The notes: generated from the letters alone by a model not told the origin. A stretch of 64,000 nucleotides of DNA from a virus (IMGVR_UViG_3300042445_001170:1-64000); one strand, 5' to 3'; counted from the stretch's first letter, positions 16,114 to 50,388 are shown. A program made the numbers and translations.

Positions 16114-16222
16114 TTGATCTTAGGTCTTAGGTCTATATATATTAATTTATATGATTTACTGATTTACTGACCCCCCGACCCCCCTATTGGAAGTATACTA
16201 TTTAGAAATTCTATGTCAAGGA

Positions 16223-16921
16223 CTAGCTTAGCTTTAAATTCTTATCCTCAATAAAGTAATCTCTTCTCCAGGCTTTTCCAATGTCAGTATTTAGCCAATC
16301 AGTCGCAGTATAAATACTATTAATAGTTTTTGCAGACTCTTCATGAGCTCTATTAGATACTGCAATGCAGCTGTTTTCTTTACCTGATTTATTTGTAGGA
16401 TCAATAGGCAAATCTCTATCGTATAAGCTGAATGTGATGGTTCTCTTATTGTCAGTAGTTACAGGTGTAGCTCCATGTGGACATGAAGCAGCATGGATGA
16501 GAAGATCTCCCTTATGTGGCTTTACCGTCAAATTTTCTTCTGGGTAAAATACAATTCCGCCGTCCTCATTTGTTTCTGATAGGTATATAACAGCAGACCA
16601 TACTTTTGTATAAGGAGTTTCATCATCGGCTTCATTATCTCTATGTATACCAAACCATGTGTTTGCAGGAGTGTGCCAATGCAAGAAGTATTTTAGTTCC
16701 CAATTAAGATCTTTAAAAATTTCCTTTGCTTTGTCTTGTATTCCGTTATCTATTGCCGCCCCCAGAACTTCAATCTTGTCATAAGGCCTTACTTCTTTTT
16801 CGTCGTTATTAGATGAATACTCTGATGCCTTAAATGCTTCGTCAGCTGTTTCGTTGTCTAAAAATCCACGCCAAATATAAGAATGGTCACTTATTTTTTC
16901 AAAATTAGTAGTATCAAACAT
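16223..16921 (-). CDS. 2OG-Fe(II) oxygenase
   Basis: HRD, GGIVFYP, PHGATPV...R motifs. Confidence 0.8.
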   Translation of the reverse strand: MFDTTNFEKISDHSYIWRGFLDNETADEAFKASEYSSNNDEKEVRPYDKIEVLGAAIDNGIQDKAKEIFKDLNWELKYFLHWHTPANTWFGIHRDNEADDETPYTKVWSAVIYLSETNEDGGIVFYPEENLTVKPHKGDLLIHAASCPHGATPVTTDNKRTITFSLYDRDLPIDPTNKSGKENSCIAVSNRAHEESAKTINSIYTATDWLNTDIGKAWRRDYFIEDKNLKLS

Positions 16922-17214
16922 TTAGATCCCCCTATTAATAATTAATAATTAATTATATCACGAATAGATTCTGGTCGACTGCTATTTCAGATTTCATAAA
17001 ATGTTAATATATTTTTATTTTGTACGATACACACCTAAAAAGAAATCGGACATTTAGGATAGACCGCACATAATGAGCGTGTGCCTATGGGCAATGTGAT
17101 GCACTTCACAAAGTATTTTTTCAATTTGTCCCTAATGTCCGAATTTGGATTTGATAAATGTCAGACCCCCATGCTACGCTTATACTATAACAAACAAACG
17201 AAAGGAGTCAGACA

Positions 17215-17391
17215 ATGACTCAACTAAACGAAACACTATTCAGCACTATCGTGCATGACTTCCATAATGGCGGAGTCAAGTCCTCTTATGGACTATCTGC
17301 CTATGACCGCAAGGCTATGGTCAAGTACCTAATCTCTAGCCCTGCTTGCTACTGTATCGAGTGCGTGTGTGAGGTAACTCACACCGCATAA
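17215..17391 (+). CDS. Small hypothetical protein (58 aa)
   Basis: AACGAAAGGAG leader then ATG. Confidence 0.7.
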   Translation: MTQLNETLFSTIVHDFHNGGVKSSYGLSAYDRKAMVKYLISSPACYCIECVCEVTHTA

Positions 17392-17468
17392 GGTGCGTGT
17401 CGCCTTGATAATGTCAGACCTATACCCTATAATTCCATTATAACCAACTAACGAAAGAAGAACAGACA

Positions 17469-17621
17469 ATGACAATCACATACTCACTATGGGACGGCGC
17501 TCAACTACTAGGCGTGGACTTCACCGCTAATAGCGCAGACGAAATGAATAAGGCAGTAGCAGAACTACAAAAGGTTTCTAAGAATGTAGTAGCACACATG
17601 AGAAAGGTAACACAGAACTAA
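17469..17621 (+). CDS. Small hypothetical protein (50 aa)
   Basis: Follows promoter 17412 and the leader; TAATG coupling. Confidence 0.7.
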   Translation: MTITYSLWDGAQLLGVDFTANSADEMNKAVAELQKVSKNVVAHMRKVTQN

Positions 17622-17803
17622 TGTCATACGCATACTCATACCAAACTAATAGCGTGTCTAAGTGGGACACCATTCAGAGCGATGTCGCAGACGCATACGC
17701 CTACCTTGATGAAGAAGAAACAGAGCAACCCCCTGCTGATGATTTCGATGATGTAGACGATGAAGAATTAGCAAAAGTATTCGCACTAAGTTGGGATAAC
17801 TAA
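17621..17803 (+). CDS. Acidic hypothetical protein
   Basis: ORF track; coupled to the previous gene. Confidence 0.7.
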   Translation: MSYAYSYQTNSVSKWDTIQSDVADAYAYLDEEETEQPPADDFDDVDDEELAKVFALSWDN

Positions 17804-17805
17804 TA

Positions 17806-17943
17806 ATGGAACTACTACTAAATGACTACGGGCTAGAACTAGATACCTACATGGGCTCTCTATACCTACCTTGGCATACTATCGCTTTATCTACCGCCCT
17901 ACTAATCGCCTATAAGATTTATAAGAGAAAGAAGAGTAAGTAA
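17806..17943 (+). CDS. Small membrane protein (45 aa)
   Basis: MELLLNDY...; TM segment plus basic tail. Confidence 0.6.
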   Translation: MELLLNDYGLELDTYMGSLYLPWHTIALSTALLIAYKIYKRKKSK

Positions 17944-18053
17944 TGACTACTAATCGCATACTAACTACGCTAGTCCAACTAGGTATCGGTATCCCCGCCC
18001 TACTTATGCTCCGTCTAGTAATTCGTGATCTAATTCATAATAAATTAGACTAG
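17943..18053 (+). CDS. Small membrane peptide (36 aa)
   Basis: TAATG coupling; hydrophobic. Confidence 0.55.
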   Translation: MTTNRILTTLVQLGIGIPALLMLRLVIRDLIHNKLD

Positions 18054-18256
18054 CGCTACGGCGTGTCGGCTTGACAATGTCAAGCTGGCCCGCAAAGGCA
18101 CGGGGTCGGGCGTGTCGTTACGGATACGCTAAAAAACCCCTTGAATTTTGTGAGGTTTATCACAAAAAAGATTTATCAAAACACGGCGTGTCGTGTGGTA
18201 AATGTCAGTCCCCTCTGCTATAATTCCTACTATAACAACAACGAAAGGTCGTTAAA

Positions 18257-18385
18257 ATGACACTTGAAGAATACAAGGCGCACGTTGAGGCGCAACGCAA
18301 GGCAAGCCTTCTAAAGGCTATCGCAACAATGTCAGAGGCTAATGCTACAATGTCCTCTCTATTCAATACTAAGGAGGCTAACTAA
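18257..18385 (+). CDS. Small hypothetical protein (42 aa)
   Basis: AACGAAAGG leader; coupled. Confidence 0.65.
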   Translation: MTLEEYKAHVEAQRKASLLKAIATMSEANATMSSLFNTKEAN

Positions 18386-18507
18386 TGGGTTATGTAGAAA
18401 TCTTTCGCCTAGATGATGAGGGCGCTGGCTGGGTTGATTTATCAGAAGCAACACCAGATGAATTGTTTAACATTGAATTAGGATTACTAAATGAGGGGGC
18501 TCTCTAA
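18385..18507 (+). CDS. Small acidic protein (40 aa)
   Basis: AAGGAGG RBS; TAATG coupling. Confidence 0.65.
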   Translation: MGYVEIFRLDDEGAGWVDLSEATPDELFNIELGLLNEGAL

Positions 18508-18704
18508 TGGAGAAAACACAATTTGAAAAAGATTTAGAAATCAAGGAAAGTTTTATTGATTTACTTAATGACATTTATCCAGAGGTAAAAATTGGATACT
18601 CTACTTTTACACCCGCCGAAATTCTAGAGTGTTGCGACCCTGTTGCTTTTGCAATCGGATTAGTTGAGCACGAGGATTACCTAGCAGAAATGGAAAACGA
18701 ATAA
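18507..18704 (+). CDS. Hypothetical protein
   Basis: ORF track; coupled. Confidence 0.7.
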   Translation: MEKTQFEKDLEIKESFIDLLNDIYPEVKIGYSTFTPAEILECCDPVAFAIGLVEHEDYLAEMENE

Positions 18705-18805
18705 TGGATAAAGATATTTTTGGATTTGCCGAGGCAATTAGAATTGACGATCTTAGCGATGAAGATTTTAAAATTGTCGAATTAATTTTTAAAGATTTTA
18801 AGTAG
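18704..18805 (+). CDS. Small hypothetical protein (33 aa)
   Basis: TAATG coupling. Confidence 0.55.
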   Translation: MDKDIFGFAEAIRIDDLSDEDFKIVELIFKDFK

Positions 18806-19058
18806 CTAGCGGCGTGTCGACTTGACAAAGTTGATGCGCCCCCATAAGCACGGGGTCGGGCGTGTCGTTACGACATTGTTATAAAATCCCGTGAAATTTG
18901 CGGCGTGTCGATTTGACAGACAAATCGGACATTTCGATGTGATTAGTATCACACGGCTTGAGCGTCTCAGTATTTGGAATTACTGGCTAGTAATGTGAAA
19001 ATGTCAGTAGGCTCGTGTATAATTCCATACATAACAACAAACGAAAGAAGGTCTGCCA

Positions 19059-19265
19059 ATGGCTACCAAACTCTATACAATCGAAAGCCTACTTGTAGGA
19101 AAAAACTATCGCTCAAACTCTCGCCACTTTTCAGGCGAAATTGTTTCTGCTAAACCTCGTCCAGCAATTTGGTATGGCGATAAAACCGAAGCCTTTTTAA
19201 TTGAGGTTCGTACAGGCGGTCTGAGAAATAAATTCGCAACAATCGCAGTGAAGGTTGGTGAATAA
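19059..19265 (+). CDS. Hypothetical protein
   Basis: Promoter 19002 plus leader. Confidence 0.7.
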   Translation: MATKLYTIESLLVGKNYRSNSRHFSGEIVSAKPRPAIWYGDKTEAFLIEVRTGGLRNKFATIAVKVGE

Positions 19266-19442
19266 ATGAAAAGTTTTTCATCTGATGTAATTGACCATAA
19301 TGAATTTTATCTAATTCACGATTTATTATTTTTCTGTTGTGATGAGCAACAATTCCGCCACTCTTGTAAAGCACACGGCGAAATGATGGGTTGCTACTAT
19401 TGCGAATTTGATTACTCAAAAGATTGCGAGTGTGAGGAATAA
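19266..19442 (+). CDS. Small Cys-rich protein (58 aa)
   Basis: CC, CKAH, CYYC, CEC; abuts its neighbours. Confidence 0.6.
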   Translation: MKSFSSDVIDHNEFYLIHDLLFFCCDEQQFRHSCKAHGEMMGCYYCEFDYSKDCECEE

Positions 19443-19579
19443 TGATAAACTCAGTAATGCGTATAGATTGTTCAGAGTGTAATTCTACTGGACTAATCTT
19501 TTTTGGCGATAACAATAATTTTGATGTCGAAACTTGCGATTGCGATTTTGGCAAAGAGCAAGATTTATTTTTTAACTAA
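19442..19579 (+). CDS. Small Zn-binding protein (45 aa)
   Basis: CSECNSTG...CDC. Confidence 0.6.
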   Translation: MINSVMRIDCSECNSTGLIFFGDNNNFDVETCDCDFGKEQDLFFN

Positions 19580-19594
19580 CGAAAGGGAAAACCT

Positions 19595-19801
19595 ATGTAC
19601 CAAATAACTGTTGCCTACGATAGCAAGCCTATCCATTTCAACAAGAACTATACAGACGCTCTTGAAGCGTTTACCGCATTTCTTTCATTTACTGATTGGG
19701 GATTTGCTAACGAATACTCAACTGTAAATCTAATGACCCCAACTGGGAAAATGTATACTAAATTATTTTATCGTGAAGGTCGAAAGGTTGTAACAAAATG
19801 A
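19595..19801 (+). CDS. Hypothetical protein
   Basis: AACGAAAGGG leader. Confidence 0.7.
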   Translation: MYQITVAYDSKPIHFNKNYTDALEAFTAFLSFTDWGFANEYSTVNLMTPTGKMYTKLFYREGRKVVTK

Positions 19802-19989
19802 TGACTCGTAAAGACTATGTCGCAACGGCAGAAATTCTAAAGTATGCCAGCAACAAAACTCACCCCGCTGTATTTTCTAAAATTGTAAATGATTTTGCTG
19901 AAATGTTTGCGGTTGATAATCCGAGATTTGATGTAAAACGATTTCATGAGGCGAGTGGATACAATGTTCCTAACTTCAGTTCAAGATAA
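19798..19989 (+). CDS. Hypothetical protein (DNPRFD..RF motif)
   Basis: ORF track; coupled. Confidence 0.7.
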   Translation: MMTRKDYVATAEILKYASNKTHPAVFSKIVNDFAEMFAVDNPRFDVKRFHEASGYNVPNFSSR

Positions 19990-20095
19990 AGTAAAGCGAA
20001 TTCAGGAATTGCGTCGCAGTAATGCGGCGCAACCTGTTCGCAATAAGAAAAAATATAATCGCAAGATCAAACATAAGAATAAATATTCAGAGTAG
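19964..20095 (+). CDS. Small very basic protein (43 aa)
   Basis: ...LRRSNAAQPVRNKKKYNRKIKHK. Confidence 0.55.
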   Translation: MFLTSVQDKVKRIQELRRSNAAQPVRNKKKYNRKIKHKNKYSE

Positions 20096-20244
20096 CGCAT
20101 AACTATGCAGCTGCCCTCTCTTTTGTGGGGGGTCCAGTGTGAATTACGTCACATTTTAAAAATACCCTGAAAATTCGGCGTGTCGATTTTGATCTGTCAG
20201 TCCATTCTGCTATACTTGCCACTTAACCAACGAAAGGCTAACTA

Positions 20245-20454
20245 ATGGATAATTTTACTGTTGCTTGCTTGAACTATGAAATTTGTGGCGCTCAAGAAAC
20301 TTTTGATAACGATGCAGAATATGAAATTTATGGCGATGACTATATTTGTGCTGAATGCTATGCATCTGAGGAAATGGAATTCTTTGAAACTATAGGCTGG
20401 TCTGATAGCGATGCTCTTGCTTCCGCTGGCCACGGTATGGATGAGGATTACTAA
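20245..20454 (+). CDS. Acidic Cys-containing hypothetical protein
   Basis: Promoter 20195 plus leader. Confidence 0.7.
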   Translation: MDNFTVACLNYEICGAQETFDNDAEYEIYGDDYICAECYASEEMEFFETIGWSDSDALASAGHGMDEDY

Positions 20455-20485
20455 GATGTCAGTGGTCCCCGTTATAATTACCCCT

Positions 20486-21205
20486 ATGAAACTGAAACGT
20501 TCTAATGATAGAAAGGTGGCCAACCTTGTCACAAAAAATGGAAAGCAAGCCGCAATTGCCAATACTTTCGGATTACCTGCTGGAAAAGCTTACTCGTGCC
20601 CTGGTGCCACTAGTATTTGTGAAAGCGTTTGCTATGCAGGAAAACTCGAAAAGTTATTCCCTGGAGTAAAAACTAATCTGCTTCATAACTGGGCCCTGCT
20701 TAAAGACGCCGATAGCGAAACTATGGTCTCTCTTCTAAATGAAATGATTGTAGAATTCAAGGCAGATTGTGTTAAGAAAGACGCTCCTCAATTATTCCGT
20801 ATCCACTGGGACGGGGATTTCTTTAGCGATACTTATGCATATGCCTGGAAGACTGTTATCAACACACACGCTGATATTCAATTTTGGGTCTACACACGTG
20901 TAAAGTCTGCAGCGCTTATTCTTAAGGATATATCTAATCTGTCACTGTATTATTCTACGGATGATGATAATAAAGATATTGCTCATGATTTAAAACTAAC
21001 TAATGGCATTCGTCTTGCCTACCTAGGTAAAACATTTGCTGCAACCGAAGACACAATGAAGGAGTTAACTGGCAAGCCTGGTGCTAAGTGTCCTGAGAAT
21101 AATAAAAGCATTCCTCTTATCTCTAGCAATGGGTCCGCCTGCGTATCGTGTGGATTGTGCGTATACGGTAAAGCGGATATTAGATTTTCTGCGAGTAAAA
21201 AATAA
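20486..21205 (+). CDS. Gp88-like Fe-S/radical-SAM-like phage protein
   Basis: CPGATSICESVCYA, FRIHWDGDF, FWVYTR; leaderless ATG 7 nt after the -10 at 20473. Confidence 0.7.
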   Translation: MKLKRSNDRKVANLVTKNGKQAAIANTFGLPAGKAYSCPGATSICESVCYAGKLEKLFPGVKTNLLHNWALLKDADSETMVSLLNEMIVEFKADCVKKDAPQLFRIHWDGDFFSDTYAYAWKTVINTHADIQFWVYTRVKSAALILKDISNLSLYYSTDDDNKDIAHDLKLTNGIRLAYLGKTFAATEDTMKELTGKPGAKCPENNKSIPLISSNGSACVSCGLCVYGKADIRFSASKK

Positions 21206-21354
21206 TGATAGACATTCTCGGATCCTTGATCGGAATCATATTAATTTGTTTTTTGTGCTCACCAATTGTGTTGGCCGTGTACATGTGGAATGGGGCCAAG
21301 ATAGATAGCGATGGTGACGGGAAAGAAGATTTGCCTAATCGTTGGGATAGGTAA
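21205..21354 (+). CDS. Small membrane protein (49 aa)
   Basis: TAATG coupling; TM segment then DSDGDGKED. Confidence 0.5.
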   Translation: MIDILGSLIGIILICFLCSPIVLAVYMWNGAKIDSDGDGKEDLPNRWDR

Positions 21355-21404
21355 CGGCGTGTCGAGTTGACAATTGTCAGCTCGGCCCCCAATATTGTGG
21401 GGGT

Positions 21405-21434
21405 TTTTCCACAGGCTTACGAGAGTTATCCACA
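21405..21434 (+). promoter_or_regulatory. DnaA-box pair
   Basis: TTTTCCACA at 21405, TTATCCACA at 21426. Confidence 0.6.
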
Positions 21435-21547
21435 GACCCTGAAAATTTGTGATTAATCTCACAAAAGCTGCGACACGCCGAGAATGGATTAGGTAATGTC
21501 AGTGGCCTATGCTAAAATACTCTTATACCAACAACGAAAGGTAAGTT

Positions 21548-21772
21548 ATGTCTAATCTAATGAAAGTTCCACACACAGTTGAGTTCGAGGCAGTTATTGA
21601 CTTGGATAAAATTCCTTCACACTTGCTTCCTGCGCTAGTTTCTATGGATGCTGATTCTATTGAAAAAATGTGCAAAGGCGCAACACTACACGCACTTGGA
21701 ATGTCAAATGTAATTCCACTTGCTAATGAAAATAACACTTGGGCTGAAGTAACAATTAAGGGGAATAACTAA
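21548..21772 (+). CDS. Hypothetical protein
   Basis: Promoter 21497 plus leader. Confidence 0.7.
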   Translation: MSNLMKVPHTVEFEAVIDLDKIPSHLLPALVSMDADSIEKMCKGATLHALGMSNVIPLANENNTWAEVTIKGNN

Positions 21773-22038
21773 TGGGATACACAACAGCAGTAAGTCTATC
21801 TGAAGAATTAGATTTAGAAGTAGCACTAGGCTATCACTTACAAGGCAATCATTACCCGCCCGTTCCCCTCTCAATGGTCGAGCCTTGCATCGAGGCTATT
21901 GACGCTTATTGGGAAGAAGATTTTGATCGAGCAATCGAAATGCCTGAAGGCGTATCTTATAAAGGTCAAACTCACGCACCTGCTTGGGCTATTGTCGAGC
22001 AGCACCACTTGGACGCTTGGCTACCTGAAAGTGACTAA
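21772..22038 (+). CDS. Hypothetical protein
   Basis: ORF track; coupled. Confidence 0.7.
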   Translation: MGYTTAVSLSEELDLEVALGYHLQGNHYPPVPLSMVEPCIEAIDAYWEEDFDRAIEMPEGVSYKGQTHAPAWAIVEQHHLDAWLPESD

Positions 22039-22134
22039 GGTCACACAATAACTTTCTCAAATACTGAGATAGGGCTAGACTAATGTCAGACCCCAATGCT
22101 ATACTACCAACCTAACAAAGAAAAGAGGCAATAA

Positions 22135-22317
22135 ATGACAATAGATAATCAACTCTATCAGGTCGGAGATTTATTCACCACCCTGAAGTCAAAGAAAACT
22201 GGTGTGATTAAGGAAATCCACCCACAGGCATCTGGCTCGGTGCGTGTGCTACTAGAAATGCCAACGAAGGAAACTCGTTGGACTTCGGTATCCGCTAAGA
22301 CACTACTAGGCGCATAA
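22135..22317 (+). CDS. Small SH3/KOW-like hypothetical protein
   Basis: YQVGDL...GVIKEI beta pattern; promoter 22084. Confidence 0.65.
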   Translation: MTIDNQLYQVGDLFTTLKSKKTGVIKEIHPQASGSVRVLLEMPTKETRWTSVSAKTLLGA

Positions 22318-22452
22318 CCTAAATCGAAACAGGGACAGTTTAGGAAAGTATCTAGTCCAATGTCGTAAGTAAGAACTTTCCTCCCTTCGGGGAAATGTCA
22401 GACCCCCCTGCTATACTATCCATAACAACAACCAACCAACGAAAGGCACACA

Positions 22453-22869
22453 ATGTCAAGAGCAATCACAGTAAAGGTGGCAACACCAAAGGTAATTAAG
22501 GCACTAGAAACTCGTCTAGCAACACTAGAAAAAGACTATGCTTCACAAGAAGCAAACGAAGCAAAGTTCCAAAAGAAGCACGAAGCGTGGAAAAAGGAAA
22601 TTGGTAAGTGGGCTATCGCTAACTTCTCAAAGTCCGAGAACCTTCGCACAAACTATCGTTCTTGGAACAAAACGCTAAATGTTGATTTTGACATCATTGT
22701 AAGTGAGAAGGAGTTTCCGCTAGAGCCTGAGAAGGACTACGAAACAATCCATCAGCACACTTATCGTGAGATGAAAGAGGACATCACAAATGCCCTAACA
22801 ATTCTCAAGATGACAGATGAGGAAACAGTAAATGCTTCTACAATGAAGCAGATTGCTAAGTATCTCTAA
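22453..22869 (+). CDS. Coiled-coil hypothetical protein
   Basis: Promoter 22396 plus leader. Confidence 0.75.
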   Translation: MSRAITVKVATPKVIKALETRLATLEKDYASQEANEAKFQKKHEAWKKEIGKWAIANFSKSENLRTNYRSWNKTLNVDFDIIVSEKEFPLEPEKDYETIHQHTYREMKEDITNALTILKMTDEETVNASTMKQIAKYL

Positions 22870-22933
22870 ATAATTTGGGGGGCAGAACTAAAGTCCTGAA
22901 CCCAATCGTTCTCGCATAACGCTAAATTGCGAA

Positions 22934-22960
22934 CGACCTGAGTAAGTCGCCAAACTGCTC
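22934..22960 (+). ncRNA. Small H-type pseudoknot element, copy 1
   Basis: CGAC-CTGAGTAA-GTCG-CCAAAC-TGCTC. Confidence 0.55.
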
Positions 22961-22992
22961 TCCTTCGGGAAACTACTAACAAAGGTAATACA

Positions 22993-23253
22993 ATGGCAAA
23001 TCGTTTCAGAGTAGAAATCTACGATGCAAACAAACTTAATGACATCACGATTTATTCGGATCAAGGTGTTGATAAAGAATACTTAACTGAATTAGTATTC
23101 AGCAACATCAGAAACTTTAGCGGAAAAATTAACGCTTATGTTTTTGATAACGTGAAGAAAAAGAAAACAACTGCAATGTTTCTTGATGAGAGCACAGTTG
23201 AATTTAATAAGAACTTAATTAAAAATGCGACAAAGGTAGAGGTGGGGATTTAA
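22993..23253 (+). CDS. Hypothetical protein
   Basis: ORF track; AAAGG RBS. Confidence 0.7.
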   Translation: MANRFRVEIYDANKLNDITIYSDQGVDKEYLTELVFSNIRNFSGKINAYVFDNVKKKKTTAMFLDESTVEFNKNLIKNATKVEVGI

Positions 23254-23282
23254 TCCCCAGCTCGGCCCCCGCTTTTGAGGGG

Positions 23283-23314
23283 TTATCCACAGCGTTACGA
23301 CAACCTGTGGAAAA
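23283..23314. promoter_or_regulatory. Inverted DnaA-box pair
   Basis: TTATCCACA at 23283, TGTGGAAAA at 23306. Confidence 0.6.
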
Positions 23315-23431
23315 CCCTGAAAATTTGTGAGAATGATCACACCGCACAATTCGGACAAATGACTATCTAATCTAGACAATGTCAGTGCCACCTGTTATAC
23401 TTACAACTAATCAAACGAAAGGTAAAAAATA

Positions 23432-24436
23432 ATGGCTCATAATCTAGAAATGGAAAACGGCGAAGTTGCTTTCGCTCTCCGTGGCGCACCTGCTTGGCAC
23501 AATCTAGCAAATCGCATCTTCACACAAGATGAAGAAGTAACTACACAATCTATGCTTGAAGAAGCAAAGTTGGCTAATTGGAATGTTCGTCTATCTCCAA
23601 TAACTGAGCACATTCCAGAATCTTGGAATGATGTTTCTACTGCATCTCTTGTCATTCGTGATAACCCATTCAATGGCGGAACTGATGTTCTTGCAACTGT
23701 CGGTAAGCGTTACAAGCCTGTGCAGAATGAAGAACTATTTGCATTCGCTGATGCAATTCACGATGCCAATGCTGATTGCCGTTGGGAATCTGCTGGCTCA
23801 CTCAAAAAGGGCAAAGTTGTTTTCGGTACTGTGGACATTCCTCGCACAATGGTGCTTGACCCACAAGGCGCTAACGATGAAACTAAACTCTATCTAATTG
23901 TTTGGACATCTCATGACGGGTCTGTTGCCGTTCAGGCAGCCGTTACACCTGTTCGTGTTGTTTGCCAAAACACACTTAACCTTGCAATGAAGAATGCTAA
24001 GCAATCTTTCAAGATTCGCCATACGCAATCTGTTGAAGGTCGCATTCAGGTTGCTCGTGAAACTCTTGGGCTTGCTCTTGGTTATTTCGATGAGTTTGAA
24101 GTTGAAGCAAAGGCGCTTTACTCTCAGGCAATTACTGATGCTGAATTCTCTAAGTTGATTCAGACAATTTATCCTAAGCCTGAAAAAGATGCTAAGGGTG
24201 CAATCAAGAAGTGGGAAAACAAAGTTGTCCTGCTTGACGATTTGTATCACAACTCACCAACTAATGCTAACATCAAGGGAACAAAGTGGGGCGCATTCAA
24301 TGCACTTACTGAGCGCCTTGATTACTATCGTTCAGGTCGTGGCAATGGTGAAACTCTTATGGCGGGTGCATCAGGATTTGACCCTGTTCTAACTGCTGAG
24401 AAAAACAAAATCAAGAAATTGGTTTCTGCTTTCTAA
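23432..24436 (+). CDS. DUF932 family (phage/plasmid TIGR03299-like) protein
   Basis: MAHNL...AWH, YKPVQN, SHDGS...TPVRVVCQNTL, IRHT, GTKWGAFNALTE. Confidence 0.88.
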   Translation: MAHNLEMENGEVAFALRGAPAWHNLANRIFTQDEEVTTQSMLEEAKLANWNVRLSPITEHIPESWNDVSTASLVIRDNPFNGGTDVLATVGKRYKPVQNEELFAFADAIHDANADCRWESAGSLKKGKVVFGTVDIPRTMVLDPQGANDETKLYLIVWTSHDGSVAVQAAVTPVRVVCQNTLNLAMKNAKQSFKIRHTQSVEGRIQVARETLGLALGYFDEFEVEAKALYSQAITDAEFSKLIQTIYPKPEKDAKGAIKKWENKVVLLDDLYHNSPTNANIKGTKWGAFNALTERLDYYRSGRGNGETLMAGASGFDPVLTAEKNKIKKLVSAF

Positions 24437-24442
24437 TTAAAA

Positions 24443-24470
24443 AAATCCTGAGCATGATTTAAAACTGCTC
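24443..24470 (+). ncRNA. Small H-type pseudoknot element, copy 2
   Basis: AAATC-CTGAGCAT-GATTT-AAAAC-TGCTC. Confidence 0.55.
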
Positions 24471-24482
24471 ACATTTTTTATT

Positions 24483-24556
24483 GGTCTGTTAGCTCAGTTG
24501 GTTAGAGCGCTACCCTGTCACGGTAGAGGTCGACGGTTCAAGTCCGTTACAGATCG
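24483..24556 (+). tRNA. tRNA-Asp(GUC)
   Basis: Cloverleaf; anticodon arm CTACC-CTGTCAC-GGTAG. Confidence 0.95.
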
Positions 24557-24681
24557 CAAAATGCCCCCAATAGTAAGGGAGCAAAAAGTGTGTTACGAGT
24601 CACAAAACAATTCCCTGGAATCTATTGTATATGTCAGTGGGTTCGTGTACAATACTCCTATAACCTAACGAAAGAGGTAAA

Positions 24682-25110
24682 ATGTCACGAGAACGCAGAA
24701 CGGGATACACAGGCAATGTATTAGATGGCGAGAAGCTTGCCAAAATTGCTAATGACATCTACAACATTCAGTATACTGGTGGTGCAAGTAATTGCACGGT
24801 AGACAACCTATTACTAATTGAACTAGAAGAAAAAAATGTATTTGGGGATCCAAAGTATGCAGTAATATGCTCAGAAGGTGTTGGCTGGGAACAAGATGAA
24901 TATGGTTGCCTAGAAATACCTACAAACATTGGCGCTATGGGTCTATGGAATGGAAGAGTCTTTATCTCAGTAGAGACTGTTAAGTCTTGTCAGACTATAT
25001 TTACCAAGGAAGTATCAGAATACATTAGAACCTTTGGGTCCCGCCTGGATTCAAATTGCTCCCTATGGCAGTCCAAAATGTCAGTGGCACCTGCTACAAT
25101 ACTCGCATGA
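24682..25110 (+). CDS. Hypothetical protein
   Basis: Promoter 24632 plus leader. Confidence 0.7.
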   Translation: MSRERRTGYTGNVLDGEKLAKIANDIYNIQYTGGASNCTVDNLLLIELEEKNVFGDPKYAVICSEGVGWEQDEYGCLEIPTNIGAMGLWNGRVFISVETVKSCQTIFTKEVSEYIRTFGSRLDSNCSLWQSKMSVAPATILA

Positions 25111-25763
25111 CCAACGAACTAGTATCAAGTAAATATACATTTGTCTGCGACCCAGATGAATGTGATTGTCTAATTGAATTAACATCATCTGACGGGTTTG
25201 GATTCCCATCAGGTGTGACAGAACTCACATGTCCATGTGGCCGTAAGACTACCTTATTGTCAGTGGAGCATGCTACAATTGCACCAACAACAACGAAAGA
25301 GGAACAAATGGAAACAACAACACCTGCAGTAACCGTCCCTGATACATACAACTCAAATTTATTGGTTACCTATAAAGTAATCCGTGGCTATTCAGATGCA
25401 GAATATGCAACTGATAAGGTTGCATCTATTGAGTGGGACTTACATAATGGACGTCAATCACAAAAGCGTGTAACCACTCTCCTATCTCAAATTGATGCCG
25501 TCAAAGATATCATTACTGAATCATATGCTGATTCAAGCGACCAAGAAACACTTCAAGCAATTGCTGAAGCGCTAGACATTTCTCTAACACGAGAAGTTGA
25601 GTGGTCTGCAACAATTGAAGTTAGCGGAACATTAACAATTGATTTACTTGAAAGCACAGTTGATGATGTCGAACAAGAAATCTACGACAATCTTTATGTT
25701 GACTCACAAAACGGTCAGATTGAAATCGTTGACACTGAAGTTACGAATGTGCGTGAAAACTAA
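25107..25763 (+). CDS. Hypothetical protein: Zn-ribbon N-terminus, internal second start at 25308
   Basis: Leaderless ATG after the -10 at 25095; internal promoter 25258 plus leader give an in-frame ATG at 25308. Confidence 0.7.
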   Translation: MTNELVSSKYTFVCDPDECDCLIELTSSDGFGFPSGVTELTCPCGRKTTLLSVEHATIAPTTTKEEQMETTTPAVTVPDTYNSNLLVTYKVIRGYSDAEYATDKVASIEWDLHNGRQSQKRVTTLLSQIDAVKDIITESYADSSDQETLQAIAEALDISLTREVEWSATIEVSGTLTIDLLESTVDDVEQEIYDNLYVDSQNGQIEIVDTEVTNVREN

Positions 25764-25975
25764 TGTACTTTGAACTTACCGCTCCCGATAGGTTGTCCAT
25801 GGAGATGGCCTATTGGGATGCACAAATCACAGGGCTTGACCCTGAAGCAATGTCACCGTTGACTTTCAACATCGGAACTGGTAGTATTGAGAAAGTAAGT
25901 CGTATTCGTGATAAGTATAACTTGACAGAGTCCTACTGGTCAGATAAAGAAGCGACAGGATACAAGGAGAGATAA
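25763..25975 (+). CDS. Hypothetical protein
   Basis: Coupled ORF. Confidence 0.7.
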   Translation: MYFELTAPDRLSMEMAYWDAQITGLDPEAMSPLTFNIGTGSIEKVSRIRDKYNLTESYWSDKEATGYKER

Positions 25976-26121
25976 TGTCAGATTATAAAGATGGTTTTAC
26001 AGACGGGTATAAGTTTGCTCGTGAAGAACTAATGGAAAAGTTAGCAGAGATTGATATTGCTGACATTGACTCTTGGATTCTTGACCGTCTTTCAGAGATG
26101 ATTGAAGGTAATCAACTGTGA
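25975..26121 (+). CDS. Small acidic protein (48 aa)
   Basis: AGGAG RBS; MSDYKDGF... Confidence 0.6.
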   Translation: MSDYKDGFTDGYKFAREELMEKLAEIDIADIDSWILDRLSEMIEGNQL

Positions 26122-26309
26122 TGGCTGAGTGGCTTAAGTGTGATCAATGTGCAGCACAAGCTATGTGGGAAGCAAAGAAAGACGCTATGTCTCTTTATTT
26201 CTGCGGACATCATAAGAATGCACAGGGCGAGTCTCTTGTGGACTGGGCCCATGAAATGGTACAATTACTCAACTACGAAAAAGAACACCAACTAGAAACG
26301 GCGGAATAA
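26118..26309 (+). CDS. Small Zn-binding protein (CDQC...FCGHH)
   Basis: Motif pattern seen in small actinobacterial and actinophage proteins. Confidence 0.7.
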   Translation: MMAEWLKCDQCAAQAMWEAKKDAMSLYFCGHHKNAQGESLVDWAHEMVQLLNYEKEHQLETAE

Positions 26310-26310
26310 A

Positions 26311-26679
26311 ATGGGCGACAGAGCAAACTTTGGATTTAAAGATTCCAAGGACAATATTGTATTTCTATATGGACACTGGGCGGGGCACCGAATGCTAGAG
26401 AACCTAGCGGATGCTGTAGGCGCTGCAGAGCCACGTTGGCAGGACGAATCATATGCAACACGTATTGCTATCTCACAATTAATTAAAGACGAATGGGCTA
26501 GCGAAACAGGGTGGGGCATTACAGTAAATGAATTAGCAGACAATGAGCACAAGGTCCCTATTATCGATTGGAAGAACCAAACGTTTACATTAATGGAAGA
26601 GGACCTGAAGACGGTTGTATTTAGTACAACACTGGATGCATTTGTAACTAAGTATTCCAGTCAACCAAGTATGGTATAA
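26311..26679 (+). CDS. Hypothetical protein (MGDRAN...LYGHWAG family)
   Basis: ORF track. Confidence 0.75.
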   Translation: MGDRANFGFKDSKDNIVFLYGHWAGHRMLENLADAVGAAEPRWQDESYATRIAISQLIKDEWASETGWGITVNELADNEHKVPIIDWKNQTFTLMEEDLKTVVFSTTLDAFVTKYSSQPSMV

Positions 26680-26684
26680 TTAAT

Positions 26685-26836
26685 CCAGGACCTATGGTCT
26701 TGGTTTTAATACAGAAATGAAATGGTGCGTCTAACTAGTCTACGGGCCAGGCGCTAAGTAAAGCGGTTTATTTCTTTCGTTGGAAATCTAGCAGCCATAT
26801 TCATAACCCCCCAGCTAATCCTGGGGGGTATTCTTT
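26685..26836 (+). ncRNA. Candidate sRNA with loop complementary to the island mRNA leaders
   Basis: TGGTATAAT at 26672-26680, 5' hairpin, long closing stem, loop TTTCGTTG, terminator. Confidence 0.65.
26806..26836 (+). terminator. Intrinsic terminator
   Basis: ACCCCCCAG-CTAATC-CTGGGGGGT followed by ATTCTTT. Confidence 0.8.
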
Positions 26837-26917
26837 TGCCCACAAAAGATATGAGGGTATCAGATCTCTTTTAAGAAGTCAATATAAAATACCCTGAAAA
26901 TTTGTGATCTTGACCAC

Positions 26918-26970
26918 AAACCTAACAATAGATTAATTAAACCTAACAAGCTTTCGATCAAACCTAACAA
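26918..26970 (+). repeat. AAACCTAACAA x3 with a 21-bp period
   Basis: Copies at 26918, 26939, 26960. Confidence 0.9.
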
Positions 26971-27053
26971 TGTGGTCCAATTCACACAGCATATGTATTC
27001 CATTTGTCAGTGGTCTAGTCTATAATTAGAACATATCAACGAAAGGATATAAA

Positions 27054-27797
27054 ATGCCAAACTGGGTATTCAACGGATTAACTATTGAGGGTAATCCTGA
27101 GCAAGTTAAGTCTTTAATTACACAGATGAATAAGCCATTTATTTATTCAATTACTCCTGTTGGAGATTTAGCATATGATGTCAAGCAGACTAAGTATGTT
27201 AATCCTATCTTTGCTTTTCATAATATCTATTCATATAGAGATGCTGGTATTACTGATGAACAGTATCATTCTCAACCGCCCCATAATCCTGATACAACAA
27301 TGAAGGATTGGTTTAAGTTTGAGACCAATGATTGGTACAACTTCAATGTCCGTGAGTGGGGCACTAAATGGGATGTAGCCGTATCTGAGGATGATAAGTA
27401 TCCTGATACTACTATTGAGGAAGCCGAAAATGGCGAGAACTATGTAGTCCACTATAACTTTAATACTGCTTGGTCTCGTCCAATGAATGCTTTAATTAAA
27501 CTATCATCTCAATACCCAACATTACTATTTACTTTATCATATGAGGAAGAAACAGGTTGGGGTGGGGAATGTGAGTTCCTTCGTGGAGAAGTTATCTCAG
27601 AATCAGAATATGACAACATGTGCCGTGATTGTGATGCAACAGACCAAATGGAATACTGCGAAAATGACTGTGGTGAAATCTGTGGCAACTGCAACTGGCT
27701 TGGTGAGGCTGACCTAGAGGCTGTAGCAAAATGTCAGACCCATGCTATATACTTGGAAACTAAAGTACCCGAATATCGAAAGGCGGAGGTAAAATGA
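27054..27797 (+). CDS. DUF1281/YubB ferredoxin-like family protein
   Basis: MPNWVFN, DWYNFNVREWGTKWD, FNTAWS motifs; Cys-rich tail. Confidence 0.75.
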   Translation: MPNWVFNGLTIEGNPEQVKSLITQMNKPFIYSITPVGDLAYDVKQTKYVNPIFAFHNIYSYRDAGITDEQYHSQPPHNPDTTMKDWFKFETNDWYNFNVREWGTKWDVAVSEDDKYPDTTIEEAENGENYVVHYNFNTAWSRPMNALIKLSSQYPTLLFTLSYEEETGWGGECEFLRGEVISESEYDNMCRDCDATDQMEYCENDCGEICGNCNWLGEADLEAVAKCQTHAIYLETKVPEYRKAEVK

Positions 27798-28024
27798 GTT
27801 TTCTAGAGAACGAAAACCAAATGGTAATAGATGCAACATATTCAGAGATTGGCGAAATGCTAGTTGAAGATTGGGTTAATTCTAATTTAGATGAAGGTCA
27901 GATGTATGCAGATTTTAGATTTGCAGAAATGTCAGATAGCAATTATCTAAAGGGCAGATTTAATCAGTTCTATGATTTAAATGAAGGCGACCAGTATTAC
28001 CTAGAATGGAATGAGGAACTATGA
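27794..28024 (+). CDS. Acidic hypothetical protein
   Basis: GGAGG RBS; ATGA overlap. Confidence 0.7.
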   Translation: MSFLENENQMVIDATYSEIGEMLVEDWVNSNLDEGQMYADFRFAEMSDSNYLKGRFNQFYDLNEGDQYYLEWNEEL

Positions 28025-28200
28025 TGTTAGGTTATTCTAAAACAGATCTAGATGAAATGATTAACTCGGTCCATGATGCTAAATTGTTTTACATTAGAAA
28101 TTCAGATGTTGAGCAAGTTGACCAAGACCCTTTAGTTGAAGGCTTATTAAAAACAAATGACTTTCTTCAAGGTCTATGGGCAGAAGGGTATTTTGACTAA
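28021..28200 (+). CDS. Hypothetical protein (59 aa)
   Basis: MMLGYS...LQGLWAEGYFD; coupled. Confidence 0.65.
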   Translation: MMLGYSKTDLDEMINSVHDAKLFYIRNSDVEQVDQDPLVEGLLKTNDFLQGLWAEGYFD

Positions 28201-28310
28201 TGCATAAACATCATTGGGAATGTGATGATGTACCAGGATACTTTTATTGTGCCTGCGGAGTAATGGCTATTCATAATAGAGAAACGGGAGAGAAGGATAT
28301 TCATGACTAA
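28200..28310 (+). CDS. Small His/Cys peptide (36 aa)
   Basis: MHKHHWEC...CACG; coupled. Confidence 0.5.
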   Translation: MHKHHWECDDVPGYFYCACGVMAIHNRETGEKDIHD

Positions 28311-28512
28311 ATCATCAGTGTTCCTAGAATACATGAAACTTCATTTGATCAGTCTTAACCAGGATTGGGAAGATGCTAAAAATGGAGCACCTTTGAAGGA
28401 TGATGAATATGACCCTTCAGATGATTACTTTGAAGGAGCAATTGCAGCAACAGAACATTTATTGTCAGTGGCAACTGATATAATGAACTCTACTAACGAA
28501 AGGTATGAATAA
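28303..28512 (+). CDS. Hypothetical protein
   Basis: ORF track. Confidence 0.7.
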   Translation: MTKSSVFLEYMKLHLISLNQDWEDAKNGAPLKDDEYDPSDDYFEGAIAATEHLLSVATDIMNSTNERYE

Positions 28513-28790
28513 TGGATATGACTATGGAAGACATTGGGCTCCCGCCCCATTTGCAACGTATGGTTAATGCTGGAGTATCAGGTCTTGATATCATGCATGG
28601 AGAACTAAAGAATCTAATGCTTATGGCTGAGCAAGAACTAGCAAGCGCTTTAGAACAAGAAGAAATATCAGAAGAGGCAATGGACTCTATGGTCCGCACC
28701 GAATGTGAAGGTCGACTAGACGCCTTGGTAGAACTTTACCAATTAACTTATCAATTATCATTTGCGATTGGAGCACGGGATGAAGCCTGA
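28512..28790 (+). CDS. Hypothetical protein
   Basis: Promoter 28463 plus leader. Confidence 0.7.
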   Translation: MDMTMEDIGLPPHLQRMVNAGVSGLDIMHGELKNLMLMAEQELASALEQEEISEEAMDSMVRTECEGRLDALVELYQLTYQLSFAIGARDEA

Positions 28791-29100
28791 AGATAAAGAC
28801 AAACTAAATGAATGCTTAAAGATTCTTGACACTACTGACCTTGGTCTCTCCATGGTATGGCTGTGGACGTGGTCGACTATTAATAACATCCTAGACGATG
28901 AAACGTACAAGGCCAAGGTGACACAGGACCAGATGTGGGACAACCTCTGTGAGGCTGTAGAGGCAGGCCACGGGTTCTCTCTGGAGTACGGGGCGGAACA
29001 ACATCAGGACGATGTACTTGAATGGATGACTAATCGTGACTACATTGTGGACACAATGTGGGAGGAAGAAGAGGATGAAGACGAAGATGAAGATGAGTGA
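28780..29100 (+). CDS. Acidic hypothetical protein
   Basis: Start moved to MKPEDK after GGAG. Confidence 0.7.
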   Translation: MKPEDKDKLNECLKILDTTDLGLSMVWLWTWSTINNILDDETYKAKVTQDQMWDNLCEAVEAGHGFSLEYGAEQHQDDVLEWMTNRDYIVDTMWEEEEDEDEDEDE

Positions 29101-29233
29101 CGCATACCTGAATGATCAATTAAATACAGCACAAAAGCTTTTGTGGGGCGGGTCCGAAACAGAAAACATTGAAGCCCATAACATCATTGCTAAATTAATT
29201 AAAGATCGTATTGAACAAGCGGATCTTTTGTAA
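29093..29233 (+). CDS. Small hypothetical protein
   Basis: Start moved to MSDAY. Confidence 0.6.
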   Translation: MSDAYLNDQLNTAQKLLWGGSETENIEAHNIIAKLIKDRIEQADLL

Positions 29234-29341
29234 GGGCCAAATTCGGCGGTTACGACACAATTTAATAAACTCCTGAAACTATTTACAAAATTGGAAATAG
29301 TTGATATACTGAATAAAACATCTCTTGAAAGGGGATTCAAA

Positions 29342-29491
29342 ATGGCAACAAAGCGTGAATATCTAAAGTCACAGGGCATCACAGTCGGCGTACGTGGTCG
29401 CTTCTCAGGCGCAGCAAAGGTAGCTCTAGCGGAGGCGGTAGCCAAGGGCGTTACATTTACTGCAGAAACTCCAGCCAACAAGGCTAAGTAG
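29342..29491 (+). CDS. Lsr2-like DNA-binding domain-only protein
   Basis: REYLKSQGITVGVRGRFS resembles Lsr2 REWA..G..V..RGRI; AAAGGGG RBS. Confidence 0.65.
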   Translation: MATKREYLKSQGITVGVRGRFSGAAKVALAEAVAKGVTFTAETPANKAK

Positions 29492-29500
29492 TCCAGGGTG

Positions 29501-29530
29501 GAGGTCAGGGCTTCGTTCGTCCTTGACCTC
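29501..29530 (+). terminator. Hairpin terminator
   Basis: GAGGTCAGGG...CCTTGACCTC followed by a T-rich tail. Confidence 0.65.
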
Positions 29531-29573
29531 CTCTCTTATTTTTGGTACAATTAACAGTTAGGCGGAGGCGGAT

Positions 29574-29948
29574 ATGAAAACACAAGAAACAAAAGTAGCA
29601 GAATCATTAGTTAATCTAATGGATGACCATTGGTTTAATCCAACAATATTTGGTCGATACTTGGCGGAACAGCCATTATATACAATTGACCGAATTATGG
29701 AAATGGTCGTATCAGTTATATCAGAACAAGCAAAGATATATGATGTACAGTTAAATAGAGGTACATCTACTGAAGGTCTAATGTTAGCCAATGAACTGAA
29801 TGAATGTATCAAGGCATATCAGCAAGATAACAACTTAGTTAATCTTAAGTTGCCGTCCCGTTCTTACAAAGTAAAACGGGAGGAACCAGCAGAAAGAACA
29901 TATCAATTTGGATGGCGGGAAGAGAAAGATCCATTCAGTCAACCATAA
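29574..29948 (+). CDS. Hypothetical protein
   Basis: GGAGG RBS; TGGTACAAT upstream. Confidence 0.7.
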   Translation: MKTQETKVAESLVNLMDDHWFNPTIFGRYLAEQPLYTIDRIMEMVVSVISEQAKIYDVQLNRGTSTEGLMLANELNECIKAYQQDNNLVNLKLPSRSYKVKREEPAERTYQFGWREEKDPFSQP

Positions 29949-30007
29949 GGCATATACCAATGAATAGATGAATGCCTGGTTAGATAGATAAACATATCTA
30001 GCCCAAA

Positions 30008-30040
30008 TTATCCACAGGGTTATCCACATCCTGTGGATTT
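30008..30040. promoter_or_regulatory. DnaA-box cluster
   Basis: TTATCCACA at 30008 and 30020; inverted degenerate TGTGGATTT at 30032. Confidence 0.65.
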
Positions 30041-35004: not shown

Positions 35005-35043
35005 GTGGAGATTAAGTATAGTACAGAACTAAATCCCTGTCAA

Positions 35044-45983: not shown

Positions 45984-46296
45984 TATTTTTTCCCCCAGGC
46001 TTTCCTTCAAGCTCTACTCTAACACCATATGATTCCAAAATATTTTTTACCATTTCTACATACTCTATAACTCTGACTCTCATTGAGCCGTCGTATTGTG
46101 CAAAATTATCTTCGTAAAGCCTTATTGCTAGGAACTCTGGATACTTTACAATGTCCATCTGCAAGTTGCCGTCTGGCTTTTTCAGCTCCCTTATTTTAAG
46201 TGCCATGTCCTTATTATAAAATGTTGGCTTATTTGGTTCACCAGTCCACTCATTGACACCGTATTTAAAATGATCTTTATTCTTATCAATAAACAT
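45976..46296 (-). CDS. Hypothetical protein
   Basis: ORF track. Confidence 0.7.
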   Translation of the reverse strand: MFIDKNKDHFKYGVNEWTGEPNKPTFYNKDMALKIRELKKPDGNLQMDIVKYPEFLAIRLYEDNFAQYDGSMRVRVIEYVEMVKNILESYGVRVELEGKPGGKNNG

Positions 46297-46597
46297 GCTT
46301 TTCCTTTATTCTTTTCCATACTTCTTTTGTCTTATGTGCATTTCTAACTTTGTCATGAGACCCAGAATTTAAATAAACTCCACCCCATACTCCATAATCA
46401 CTATTTGATACCCCGCTGTCATAGCATAACTTAATGACTGGGCACGATAGGCATGCCTCGTCTATGCTTTTTGCTATATTGACATCTGCTTCATACTTAT
46501 CAAAAAAAAGATTAGTGTCCATTCCCAAGCAAAGGGCTAGCTTGTACCAATCTAAATTATCTTCATCTACATTTAAACTATTTAAAATATTTGACAT
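46286..46597 (-). CDS. whiB: WhiB-family Fe-S transcription factor
   Basis: W...ALC...FF...CLSCPV...C...GVWGG; start moved to MSNIL. Confidence 0.9.
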   Translation of the reverse strand: MSNILNSLNVDEDNLDWYKLALCLGMDTNLFFDKYEADVNIAKSIDEACLSCPVIKLCYDSGVSNSDYGVWGGVYLNSGSHDKVRNAHKTKEVWKRIKEKHVY

Positions 46598-46811
46598 ATC
46601 GTTTTGGCAGTTCCCAGATTCCTTCACGGCTGACAGAAATCTTTTCTGCCTTACCCCAAGCATCTTTCCTATACATGCCTTTTACATCAGTATAGCCGCC
46701 ACTATCTTTTTTCCAAATTACAAGATCATAGTTATTCCAAAACGATTCTTGTAACTTTGTTTGAGATCTTTTAATAAAAACCTCAACACCTTTCTCCGTT
46801 AGATGTAACAA
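46578..46811 (-). CDS. Hypothetical protein (TTG start)
   Basis: C-terminal part of the track ORF; its upstream part is tRNA. Confidence 0.6.
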   Translation of the reverse strand: MLHLTEKGVEVFIKRSQTKLQESFWNNYDLVIWKKDSGGYTDVKGMYRKDAWGKAEKISVSREGIWELPKRYVKYFK

Positions 46812-50199: not shown

Positions 50200-50388
50200 C
50201 TACTTAGGATTATCTGTTTTATAAAATCCATTACCTTTAAACTGTATGCCAAATGGTGTAAAGTGTCTAGTCATTTCAGACTCGCATTCTACACATGTAT
50301 ATCCTGGATCGTCATCAACAATAGACCTATGCACTGACATTGTTGCATGTGCATCGTCGTATGAGCATTTGTATTCGTATACTGGCAT
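50200..50388 (-). CDS. FmdB-family Zn-ribbon protein
   Basis: MPVYEYKC...CVEC...FKGNGFYKTD. Confidence 0.85.
   Translation of the reverse strand: MPVYEYKCSYDDAHATMSVHRSIVDDDPGYTCVECESEMTRHFTPFGIQFKGNGFYKTDNPK

Follow-up and report, generated by a model that had tools for sequence, protein, structure and literature searches.

In the phage genome IMGVR_UViG_3300042445_001170 (record G000, 112,167 bp), whose first 64 kb are the window analysed here, 17 copies of the motif TGTCAG-N10-TAnnnT stand on the plus strand in an island of small open reading frames (ORFs). On the evidence of their sequence, these sites are genuine promoters of the PafBC (RecA-NDp) architecture, and the phage, an abundant uncultured freshwater actinophage, probably plugs into the DNA-damage switch of its host. 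We consider it fairly probable that the 17 promoters would be transcribed by the host RNA polymerase with the assistance of PafBC. To our knowledge, PafBC-type "sigma adaptation" is known solely as a host DNA-damage response, and a full-text search of the library consulted found no paper on phage promoters of the PafBC type. This amounts to a known promoter class put to a new use.

The PafBC class has been described as a 22-nucleotide (nt) motif, tGTCgg(N10)tA(N3)T, in which a -26 element at -23 to -28 is combined with a canonical SigA -10 element and no -35 element (PMC8635444). The helix-turn-helix (HTH) of PafB contacts the -26 element, with R46 and R50 reading both guanines of the GTC triplet, and the HTH of PafC replaces the -35 contact of sigma region 4, which is the "sigma adaptation" (PMC8635444). 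Single-stranded DNA (ssDNA) is the signal that switches PafBC on (PMC11804915).

The motif was searched as a regular expression on both strands, with dinucleotide-preserving shuffles as the control. The window holds 19 matches, 17 of them on the plus strand within 17159-28484; the shuffles average 0.89 copies per window and never exceed 4. An earlier sequence-only reading had counted the same 17 copies and had assigned the extension TGTCAGTG to eight of them (20457, 21497, 23380, 24632, 25079, 25258, 27005 and 28463), and both counts stand. Its non-exhaustive scan by eye had seen no copy outside the island; this does not hold to the letter, as three more matches were found, at 35629 (+) and 50318-50339 (-) inside the window and at 65655 (+) beyond it; this is chance level. 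We rejected these three as promoters, since they lie within coding sequence, lack the TG extension and are not followed by a Shine-Dalgarno (SD) sequence and ATG. Widening the hexamer to TGTCRG adds three scattered sites in the window, all on the minus strand, and if one mismatch in the hexamer is tolerated, with the spacing and a TG-extended TAnnnT retained, a single site appears outside the island (6592, +) and none inside. The 17 copies, with lengths in amino acids (aa) where given, are:

17159-17180 (+): promoter 1, TGTCAGACC...TACGCT; SD GAAAGG; ATG 17215 (58 aa)
17412-17433 (+): promoter 2, TGTCAGACC...TATAAT; ATG 17469 (50 aa)
18203-18224 (+): promoter 3, TGTCAGTCC..TGCTATAAT; ATG 18257
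18330-18351 (+): promoter 4, TGTCAGAGG..TGCTACAAT; ATG 18385
19002-19023 (+): promoter 5, TGTCAGTAG..TGTATAAT; ATG 19059
20195-20216 (+): promoter 6, TGTCAGTCC..TGCTATACT; ATG 20245
20457-20478 (+): promoter 7, TGTCAGTGG..TATAAT; leaderless ATG 20486, 7 nt past the -10; GP88-family gene 20486-21205
21497-21518 (+): promoter 8, TGTCAGTGG..TGCTAAAAT; ATG 21548
22084-22105 (+): promoter 9, TGTCAGACC..TGCTATACT; ATG 22135
22396-22417 (+): promoter 10, TGTCAGACC..TGCTATACT; ATG 22453 (138 aa)
23380-23401 (+): promoter 11, TGTCAGTGC..TGTTATACT; ATG 23432 (DUF932, 334 aa)
24632-24653 (+): promoter 12, TGTCAGTGG..TGTACAAT; ATG 24682 (142 aa)
25079-25100 (+): promoter 13, TGTCAGTGGCACCTGCTACAAT; leaderless in-frame ATG 25107, 6 nt past the -10 (218 aa)
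25258-25279 (+): promoter 14, within the 25107 ORF; SD and in-frame ATG 25308 (151 aa)
27005-27026 (+): promoter 15, TGTCAGTGG...TATAAT; ATG 27054 (DUF1281_C/Api92-like, 247 aa)
27732-27753 (+): promoter 16, TGTCAGACCCATGCTATATACT; ambiguous -10 register (TGC-TATATA at N8 or TATACT at N10); ATG 27794
28463-28484 (+): promoter 17, TGTCAGTGG..TGATATAAT; ATG 28512

The copies share the layout aa-TGTCAG-[T/A][G/C][C/G]c-...-(TG)n-TAtAAT. In 15 of the 17, a shared leader follows 13-24 nt downstream, ending in ACGAAAGG and then the ATG of a small plus-strand ORF; ACGAAAGG is an SD sequence complementary to the ...CCUUUC 16S tail, and the leaders of these SD-led units are 25-35 nt long. The other two copies (20457 and 25079) are leaderless, with the ATG 6-7 nt past the -10, and the Pfam GP88 match in the protein downstream of 20457 begins exactly at the leaderless ATG 20486. 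The leaderless starts at 20486 and 25107 therefore identify TAnnnT as a true -10 element and place TGTCAG at about -28 to -23. At the would-be -35, the information content over 811 unique copies from related phages is 0.01-0.4 bits. Canonical TTGACA-N16-18-TATAMT promoters can be found in the same genome, before three tRNA arrays, at 16197 (-), 12158 (+) and 2336 (-), and twice where the island ends on the right (29305, 29546), such that the TGTCAG sites must be a separate class and not the ordinary promoter of the host. The three tRNA arrays, at 35020 (-), 47024 (-) and 53693 (-), each stand behind a perfect TTGACA -35 and a TATACT -10.

Most copies carry a TG extension (T at +13, 0.60-0.66; G at +14, 0.76-0.79) on a near-consensus -10, and it could be argued that the extended -10 (TGnTAtAAT) alone would make these sites constitutive SigA promoters, with PafBC or a different host protein binding TGTCAG but not activating, so that the hexamer might be a brake prior to induction, a decoy drawing PafBC off host repair and defence genes, or the site of some other regulator. 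Extra GTGTCG repeats without a -10 in the island are possibly decoys too, and host PafBC-type promoters cluster in a defence island (see below), so titration of PafBC would benefit the phage. However, the spacing of exactly N10 is kept in 17 of 17 copies and in more than 1100 in relatives, which better fits a factor touching RNA polymerase, and the TG extension is missing from six of the 15 copies that have a TA[TC]A[ACT]T -10. We therefore regard the extended -10 explanation as unlikely.

Related phages also bear on whether the array needs a shared regulator at all. A single scan of IMG/VR with the DUF932 protein of the island as query returned 308 related contigs, the family being very abundant in lake metagenomes, and the best 80 of these 308, with DUF932 identities of 92-100%, served as the conservation set (80 related loci, 1.33 Mb). 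In these loci the motif occurs 1162 times in the orientation of the island and 6 times in reverse, with hexamer position 5 being A at 0.92-0.94 and G at 0.06-0.08. When the 150 nt upstream of the DUF932 gene were aligned from 42 unique relatives, AATGTCAG, TG-n-TATAnT, the ACGAAAGG SD and both half-sites of an upstream CRP palindrome were invariant, and the spacers varied. Invariant elements amid drifting spacers point to purifying selection on separate functional elements, not to a recently copied cassette. Recent duplication of a cassette, or chance, without a shared regulator, could be argued from the leader sequence beyond the promoter that some cassettes have in common (repeat families D3 and D4). 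However, the flanks and spacers of the copies are unrelated, information is near zero outside the elements and shuffles give 0.9 copies; with the invariant elements in the 42 orthologous regions, this explanation is effectively refuted, and its probability is negligible.

The published definition (PMC8635444) describes the phage promoters well, as the sequence-only reading had proposed, and the agreement extends to positions that the regular expression left free. The GTC triplet of the -26 element is kept in all 17 copies (all TGTCAG), and the distance from the hexamer to the SigA-type TAnnnT is exactly 10 nt, with an ambiguous register at 27732. For the free positions, 468 unique phage promoters were compared with 66 unique recA promoters from diverse Actinomycetota:

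Position +6: phage T.67, A.25; recA T.71, A.21
Position +7: phage G.51, C.40; recA G.65, C.32
Position +8: phage C.52, G.41; recA G.65, C.30
Position +9: phage C.52; recA C.64

Both sets prefer W-S-S-C at +6 to +9, a preference that corresponds to the gtg of tTGTCRgtg. They share three (TGG, ACC and TGC) of their four most frequent trimers at +6 to +8, and TCC is among the top six in both. G+C-rich bases at +6 to +9 in a phage of 39% GC, in both the TGG and ACC subtypes, are hard to explain unless one protein reads both sets. The recA box itself was present in all 19 Actinomycetia genomes that had been chosen for their small size (1.3-1.9 Mb) and gave a recA match, mostly as TGTCAGTGGCnCCTGCTACCTT directly followed by the LexA box TCGAACagatGTTCG, and in 60 of 80 diverse Actinomycetota, including Streptomyces, Mycobacterium, Gordonia and Micromonospora. 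Phage promoter 25079 (TGTCAGTGGCACCTGCTACAAT) is identical at 20 of 22 bases to the recA promoter of G127, a candidate host genome described below.

Compared with the PafBC promoters of Mycobacterium and other Actinobacteria, then, the phage sites have in common TGTCRG at -28 to -23, N10 to TAnnnT, the lack of a -35 and the W-S-S-C preference. They differ in forming an array of 17 in a lytic genome, before small genes and not repair genes, in their near-consensus and mostly TG-extended -10, in a strong preference for A over G at position 5 and for A over T at -1, and in the upstream CRP-type box with which most copies are paired.

A host factor of the right kind is present in the candidate host. 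G127 is a single-contig genome of 1.44 Mb, and its RecA shares 97% identity with the RecA of a "Ca. Planktophila" metagenome-assembled genome (MAG), which places it in acI/Nanopelagicales. It encodes two adjacent WYL-domain proteins (327 and 307 aa) followed by tatC, in the mycobacterial gene order pafB-pafC-tat. The first of them matches Mycobacterium smegmatis PafB (PDB 7p5x/9fnd) over its full length (E-value 4e-39) and keeps R-M-F-E-R-D-K, i.e. R46 and R50. More broadly, of 301 Actinomycetia genomes sampled, 299 contain WYL proteins, a tally that includes seven unpublished genomes (G007, G022, G027, G030, G036, G241 and G279), which enter into none of the other claims. The motif occurs 15 times in the G127 genome, including at recA and at a gene for an OGG-like glycosylase, with leaderless geometry in several cases, and recA, a LysM gene and a DUF6504 gene each have both the motif and a LexA box. 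These matches indicate that PafBC-type promoters are in use in the acI lineage. The sequence-only reading had called for a check of the host for pafBC; G127, as a candidate host, carries the pair.

The same reading had found no WYL gene in the window, and this extends to the entire 112,167-bp genome. Six-frame hidden Markov model (HMM) searches of the whole phage genome found no WYL, Sigma70_r2, HTH_Crp_2, MotA or AsiA (PF09114 and PF09010 for the last two); no sigma-70-family gene was thus found, and a single-subunit RNA polymerase was not searched for. Searching the phage by tblastn and phmmer with acI PafB and PafC, and with their HTH domains alone, gave nothing better than an E-value of ~1, and no DNA-binding domain was found in the genes that adjoin the island under canonical promoters. 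By these methods (HMMs, tblastn, phmmer), no activator of the phage's own is detectable.

Several points weigh against the view that the phage relies on host PafBC. Position -1 is A in the phage and T in recA promoters, and the phage -10 (TGnTAtAAT) is much stronger than those of host PafBC boxes (TAgcgT, TACCTT); with such a TG-extended -10, some PafBC-independent activity is plausible, and TGTCAG is perhaps a modulator and not a requirement. The genes behind the 17 promoters are not repair genes (GP88, DUF932 and DUF1281_C-like, the rest without a family), so membership of a PafBC regulon cannot be argued from function; the repair-gene context is, however, a property of the host regulon and not of the promoter type. 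The host is identified indirectly, and since five cultured relatives lack the motif (below), there is no tractable relative in support. Finally, annotation is missing for most ORFs in the island and next to it, and a small phage DNA-binding protein among them could read the hexamer.

This last point leads to a different explanation, in which a phage-encoded activator of no recognisable family, supplied from canonical promoters or by the virion, would read TGTCAG, the likeness to PafBC being due to convergence or to competition for sites. Such an activator would redirect the host RNA polymerase as T4 MotA and AsiA do at middle promoters. Promoter classes of their own are usual in large lytic phages, canonical promoters able to supply a phage factor first are present here, and the base at -1 is unlike that of host boxes. 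On the other side, no MotA, AsiA, sigma, WYL or PafB/C-like sequence was found in the phage, and candidate hosts possess a factor of exactly this specificity. Convergence also does not readily explain why the agreement with the recA box reaches the free positions +6 to +9 in both the TGG and ACC subtypes. On balance a phage-encoded activator seems improbable to us.

The comparison with T4 is instructive in another respect. At T4 middle promoters (a MotA box at -30 and a -10), the -35 is likewise replaced by an activator box nearer the -10 and sigma region 4 is re-purposed, a parallel drawn in PMC8635444 itself. T4 encodes both the activator and the co-activator, whereas here neither was found and the box is that of a host activator; T4 arrives at this geometry with its own proteins. 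Divergent MotA/AsiA analogues in the present phage are possible.

The preferred reading, PafBC-assisted transcription, would operate as follows. The host housekeeping RNA polymerase-SigA, adapted by a PafB-PafC heterodimer at TGTCAG, would initiate 6-8 nt past each -10, with the PafB HTH reading the GTC triplet and PafC bridging to sigma region 4. ssDNA arising from DNA entry, nuclease attack, the onset of replication or earlier host damage would activate PafBC, and the island would then be fired or boosted. If so, this would be the first lytic phage found to run its own programme with an activator borrowed from the host, a WYL-family ssDNA sensor. As acI, the probable host, is the dominant freshwater bacterioplankton, the mechanism would bear on the timing of infection in nature. 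For M. smegmatis, pafBC deletion strains, purified PafBC and an RNA polymerase-SigA system exist.

The sequence-only reading had overlooked a CRP-type box upstream of most of the promoter units. Scanning the whole 112-kb genome for TGTGA-N6-TCACA with at most one mismatch gave 12 boxes (nine perfect), against 4.1 in shuffles, and all 12 lie inside the island, each upstream of a TGTCAG promoter:

17095, 17368, 18149, 18938, 20138, 21448, 22030, 23326, 24589, 25214, 26903 and 26971 (starts): CRP/GlxR-type palindromes, 16 nt each

Relative to the predicted transcription start, the box centres lie at -54.5, -63.5, -64.5 (twice), -69.5, -74.5 (three times), -77.5, -84.5 (twice) and -122.5; most are thus spaced about one helical turn (~10 bp) apart between -54.5 and -84.5, at class-I-like distances. 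Promoters 18330, 20457, 22396, 25079, 27732 and 28463 have no CRP-type box within 150 nt upstream, and some of them lie close behind a boxed promoter. One Crp-family protein, of 230 aa, is encoded in acI genomes, and the phage has no HTH_Crp_2 match. The units look composite, with a CRP-type box, then the -26 element, then the extended -10. Because a CRP/GlxR-type box lies 54-85 bp ahead of the start in most units, a second host regulator probably modulates them, and this would be Crp.

The phage has 13 tRNAs in the window and a GC content of 39%. Queried by megablast against 50,697 phage records, the island gave no nucleotide match. The large terminase is 58-63% identical to those of ~130-kb Streptomyces phages (Stanwilliamsviridae, cluster-BE-type) and 40% identical to that of Rhodococcus phage Weasels2. 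A further marker of an actinobacterial host is:

46286-46663 (-): WhiB-family gene (PF02467, 42 bits)

WhiB has been taken as a marker of actinophages elsewhere (PMC10202952; PMC10914622). Together with the leaderless starts, the GAAAGG SD and the terminase likeness, it establishes the host phylum as actinobacterial. In this the sequence-only reading was right, and a mycobacterial host does not fit a lake phage of 39% GC. An origin among mycobacteriophages is likewise ruled out by the GC content, the relatives from lake metagenomes and the Streptomyces-phage terminases as best cultured relatives. Lake Mendota and other lakes are the source of some related contigs that had been mis-binned into MAGs. 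A search of genome contigs with the phage ribonucleotide reductase returned just phage contigs mis-binned into MAGs of unrelated phyla and assigned no host. From habitat, GC content, WhiB and promoter likeness, the host is likely a member of acI/Nanopelagicales; the cultured phages of this group and their host have been reported at 45-46% GC (PMC10202952).

In cultured relatives the array is missing. Streptomyces phages Gilson, Paradiddles and Muntaha, Rhodococcus phage Weasels2 and Gordonia phage Sam12 had 0-3 copies each, not above a reversed-pattern control across records. These counts speak against inheritance of the motif from these five relatives, and in our sample of phages only the lake lineage carries the array.

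On the host side, the motif is clustered in several acI-type genomes. Within one 50-kb segment lie 10 of the 15 matches of G127 (near 0.4-0.5 Mb), 9 of 13 in G107, 9 of 13 in G060, 9 of 15 in G165, 7 of 13 in G243 and 7 of 16 in G213, and in these six genomes the observed count was reached in none of 5000 simulations. Clustering was weaker in three other genomes and absent in two. In G127 the region (C1:439000-471000; L242, L243) encodes a DrmD-like SNF2 helicase, a GmrSD/HEC-06 type IV restriction enzyme, two C5 methylases, trypsin-like and subtilase proteases and TPR proteins, and several of the promoters are leaderless. In acI-type genomes, then, PafBC-type promoters seem to stand before the genes of a defence island, and the clustering suggests a role for PafBC in controlling anti-phage defence as well in streamlined actinobacteria. 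PMC12848934 cites a 2025 study tying PafBC to mycobacteriophage resistance. Promoters of the phage-like consensus occur in the host island as well, in G213 (C1:424788; L244) and G147 (C1:481917; L245), with a shared leader before a small ORF, and the host promoter TGTCAGTCGCCTCTGCTATAAT is identical at 21 of 22 positions to phage copy 18203. As a link to the host, homology between host island and phage was rejected, since it amounts to a 28-nt promoter match (G213 424788 and phage 18203, 93%) and zero shared genes.

It is possible, though we hold it doubtful, that the phage takes its cue from the alarm signal by which host defences are armed, with ~40 small early genes, candidates for counter-defence or takeover, placed behind stronger copies of the promoter. 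Nuclease attack on incoming DNA would generate ssDNA, which would activate PafBC and turn on the host defence island, and the phage would answer automatically. If true, phage promoters might out-compete host promoters for PafBC, and through the CRP boxes upstream the metabolic state of the host would be read as well.

Two other kinds of system invite comparison. The terminal-redundancy module of Bacillus phage SPO1 and the pre-early/early region of T5 are host-takeover clusters with many strong promoters, and they resemble the present island as dense one-strand blocks of tiny ORFs with a strong promoter for each unit or few units. Their promoters, however, are plain host sigma-A/sigma-70 promoters with a -35, whereas the island has an activator box and no -35. 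LexA-controlled phage genes are also known, as are ssDNA promoters in plasmid leading regions that express anti-defence genes on entry. Such mobile elements likewise make the expression of their first genes depend on a signal of DNA state in the recipient, but the mechanism, LexA cleavage or a hairpin promoter in place of an activator with a WYL ssDNA sensor, is entirely different.

The putative early timing of the island is taken from its look, that is, one strand, tiny ORFs without known function and many promoters. The recognisable families are GP88 (PF17338), DUF932 and DUF1281_C/Api92-like only, and ~35 ORFs are without annotation. Its extent and the remaining features are:

17040-30040 (+): island of ~40 small ORFs between a divergent gene at 16921 (-) and a strong terminator at 30010-30038
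29277-29551 (+): right end of the island; two canonical -35/-10 promoters, each with TG: TTTACA-17-TATACT and TTGACC-17-TACAAT
17395-21364 (+): nine copies of the 8-mer GCGTGTCG (GGCGTGTCG core), in the left part of the island only
26675-26835 (+): candidate structured non-coding RNA with a strong terminator at its end (fold z-score -3.4)

Three copies of GCGTGTCG lie exactly 17 nt ahead of a TGTCAG. Others form triple arrays in non-coding stretches (18061/18110/18186 and 18812/18860/18903), and TTGACA follows several copies. The 8-mer includes GTGTCG, which resembles the PafBC core.

In 25079-25763 (+), the in-frame starts 25107 and 25308 are nested in one ORF, which suggests a long (218 aa) and a short (151 aa) form of the protein. 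The candidate RNA at 26675-26835 holds CUUUCGUUGG, complementary to CCAACGAAAG, the leader that the island mRNAs have in common. Scanned with Rfam, the island gave no family for this RNA and returned tRNA-Asp alone, a lone gene at 24483-24557 (+) between the DUF932 gene and promoter 24632.

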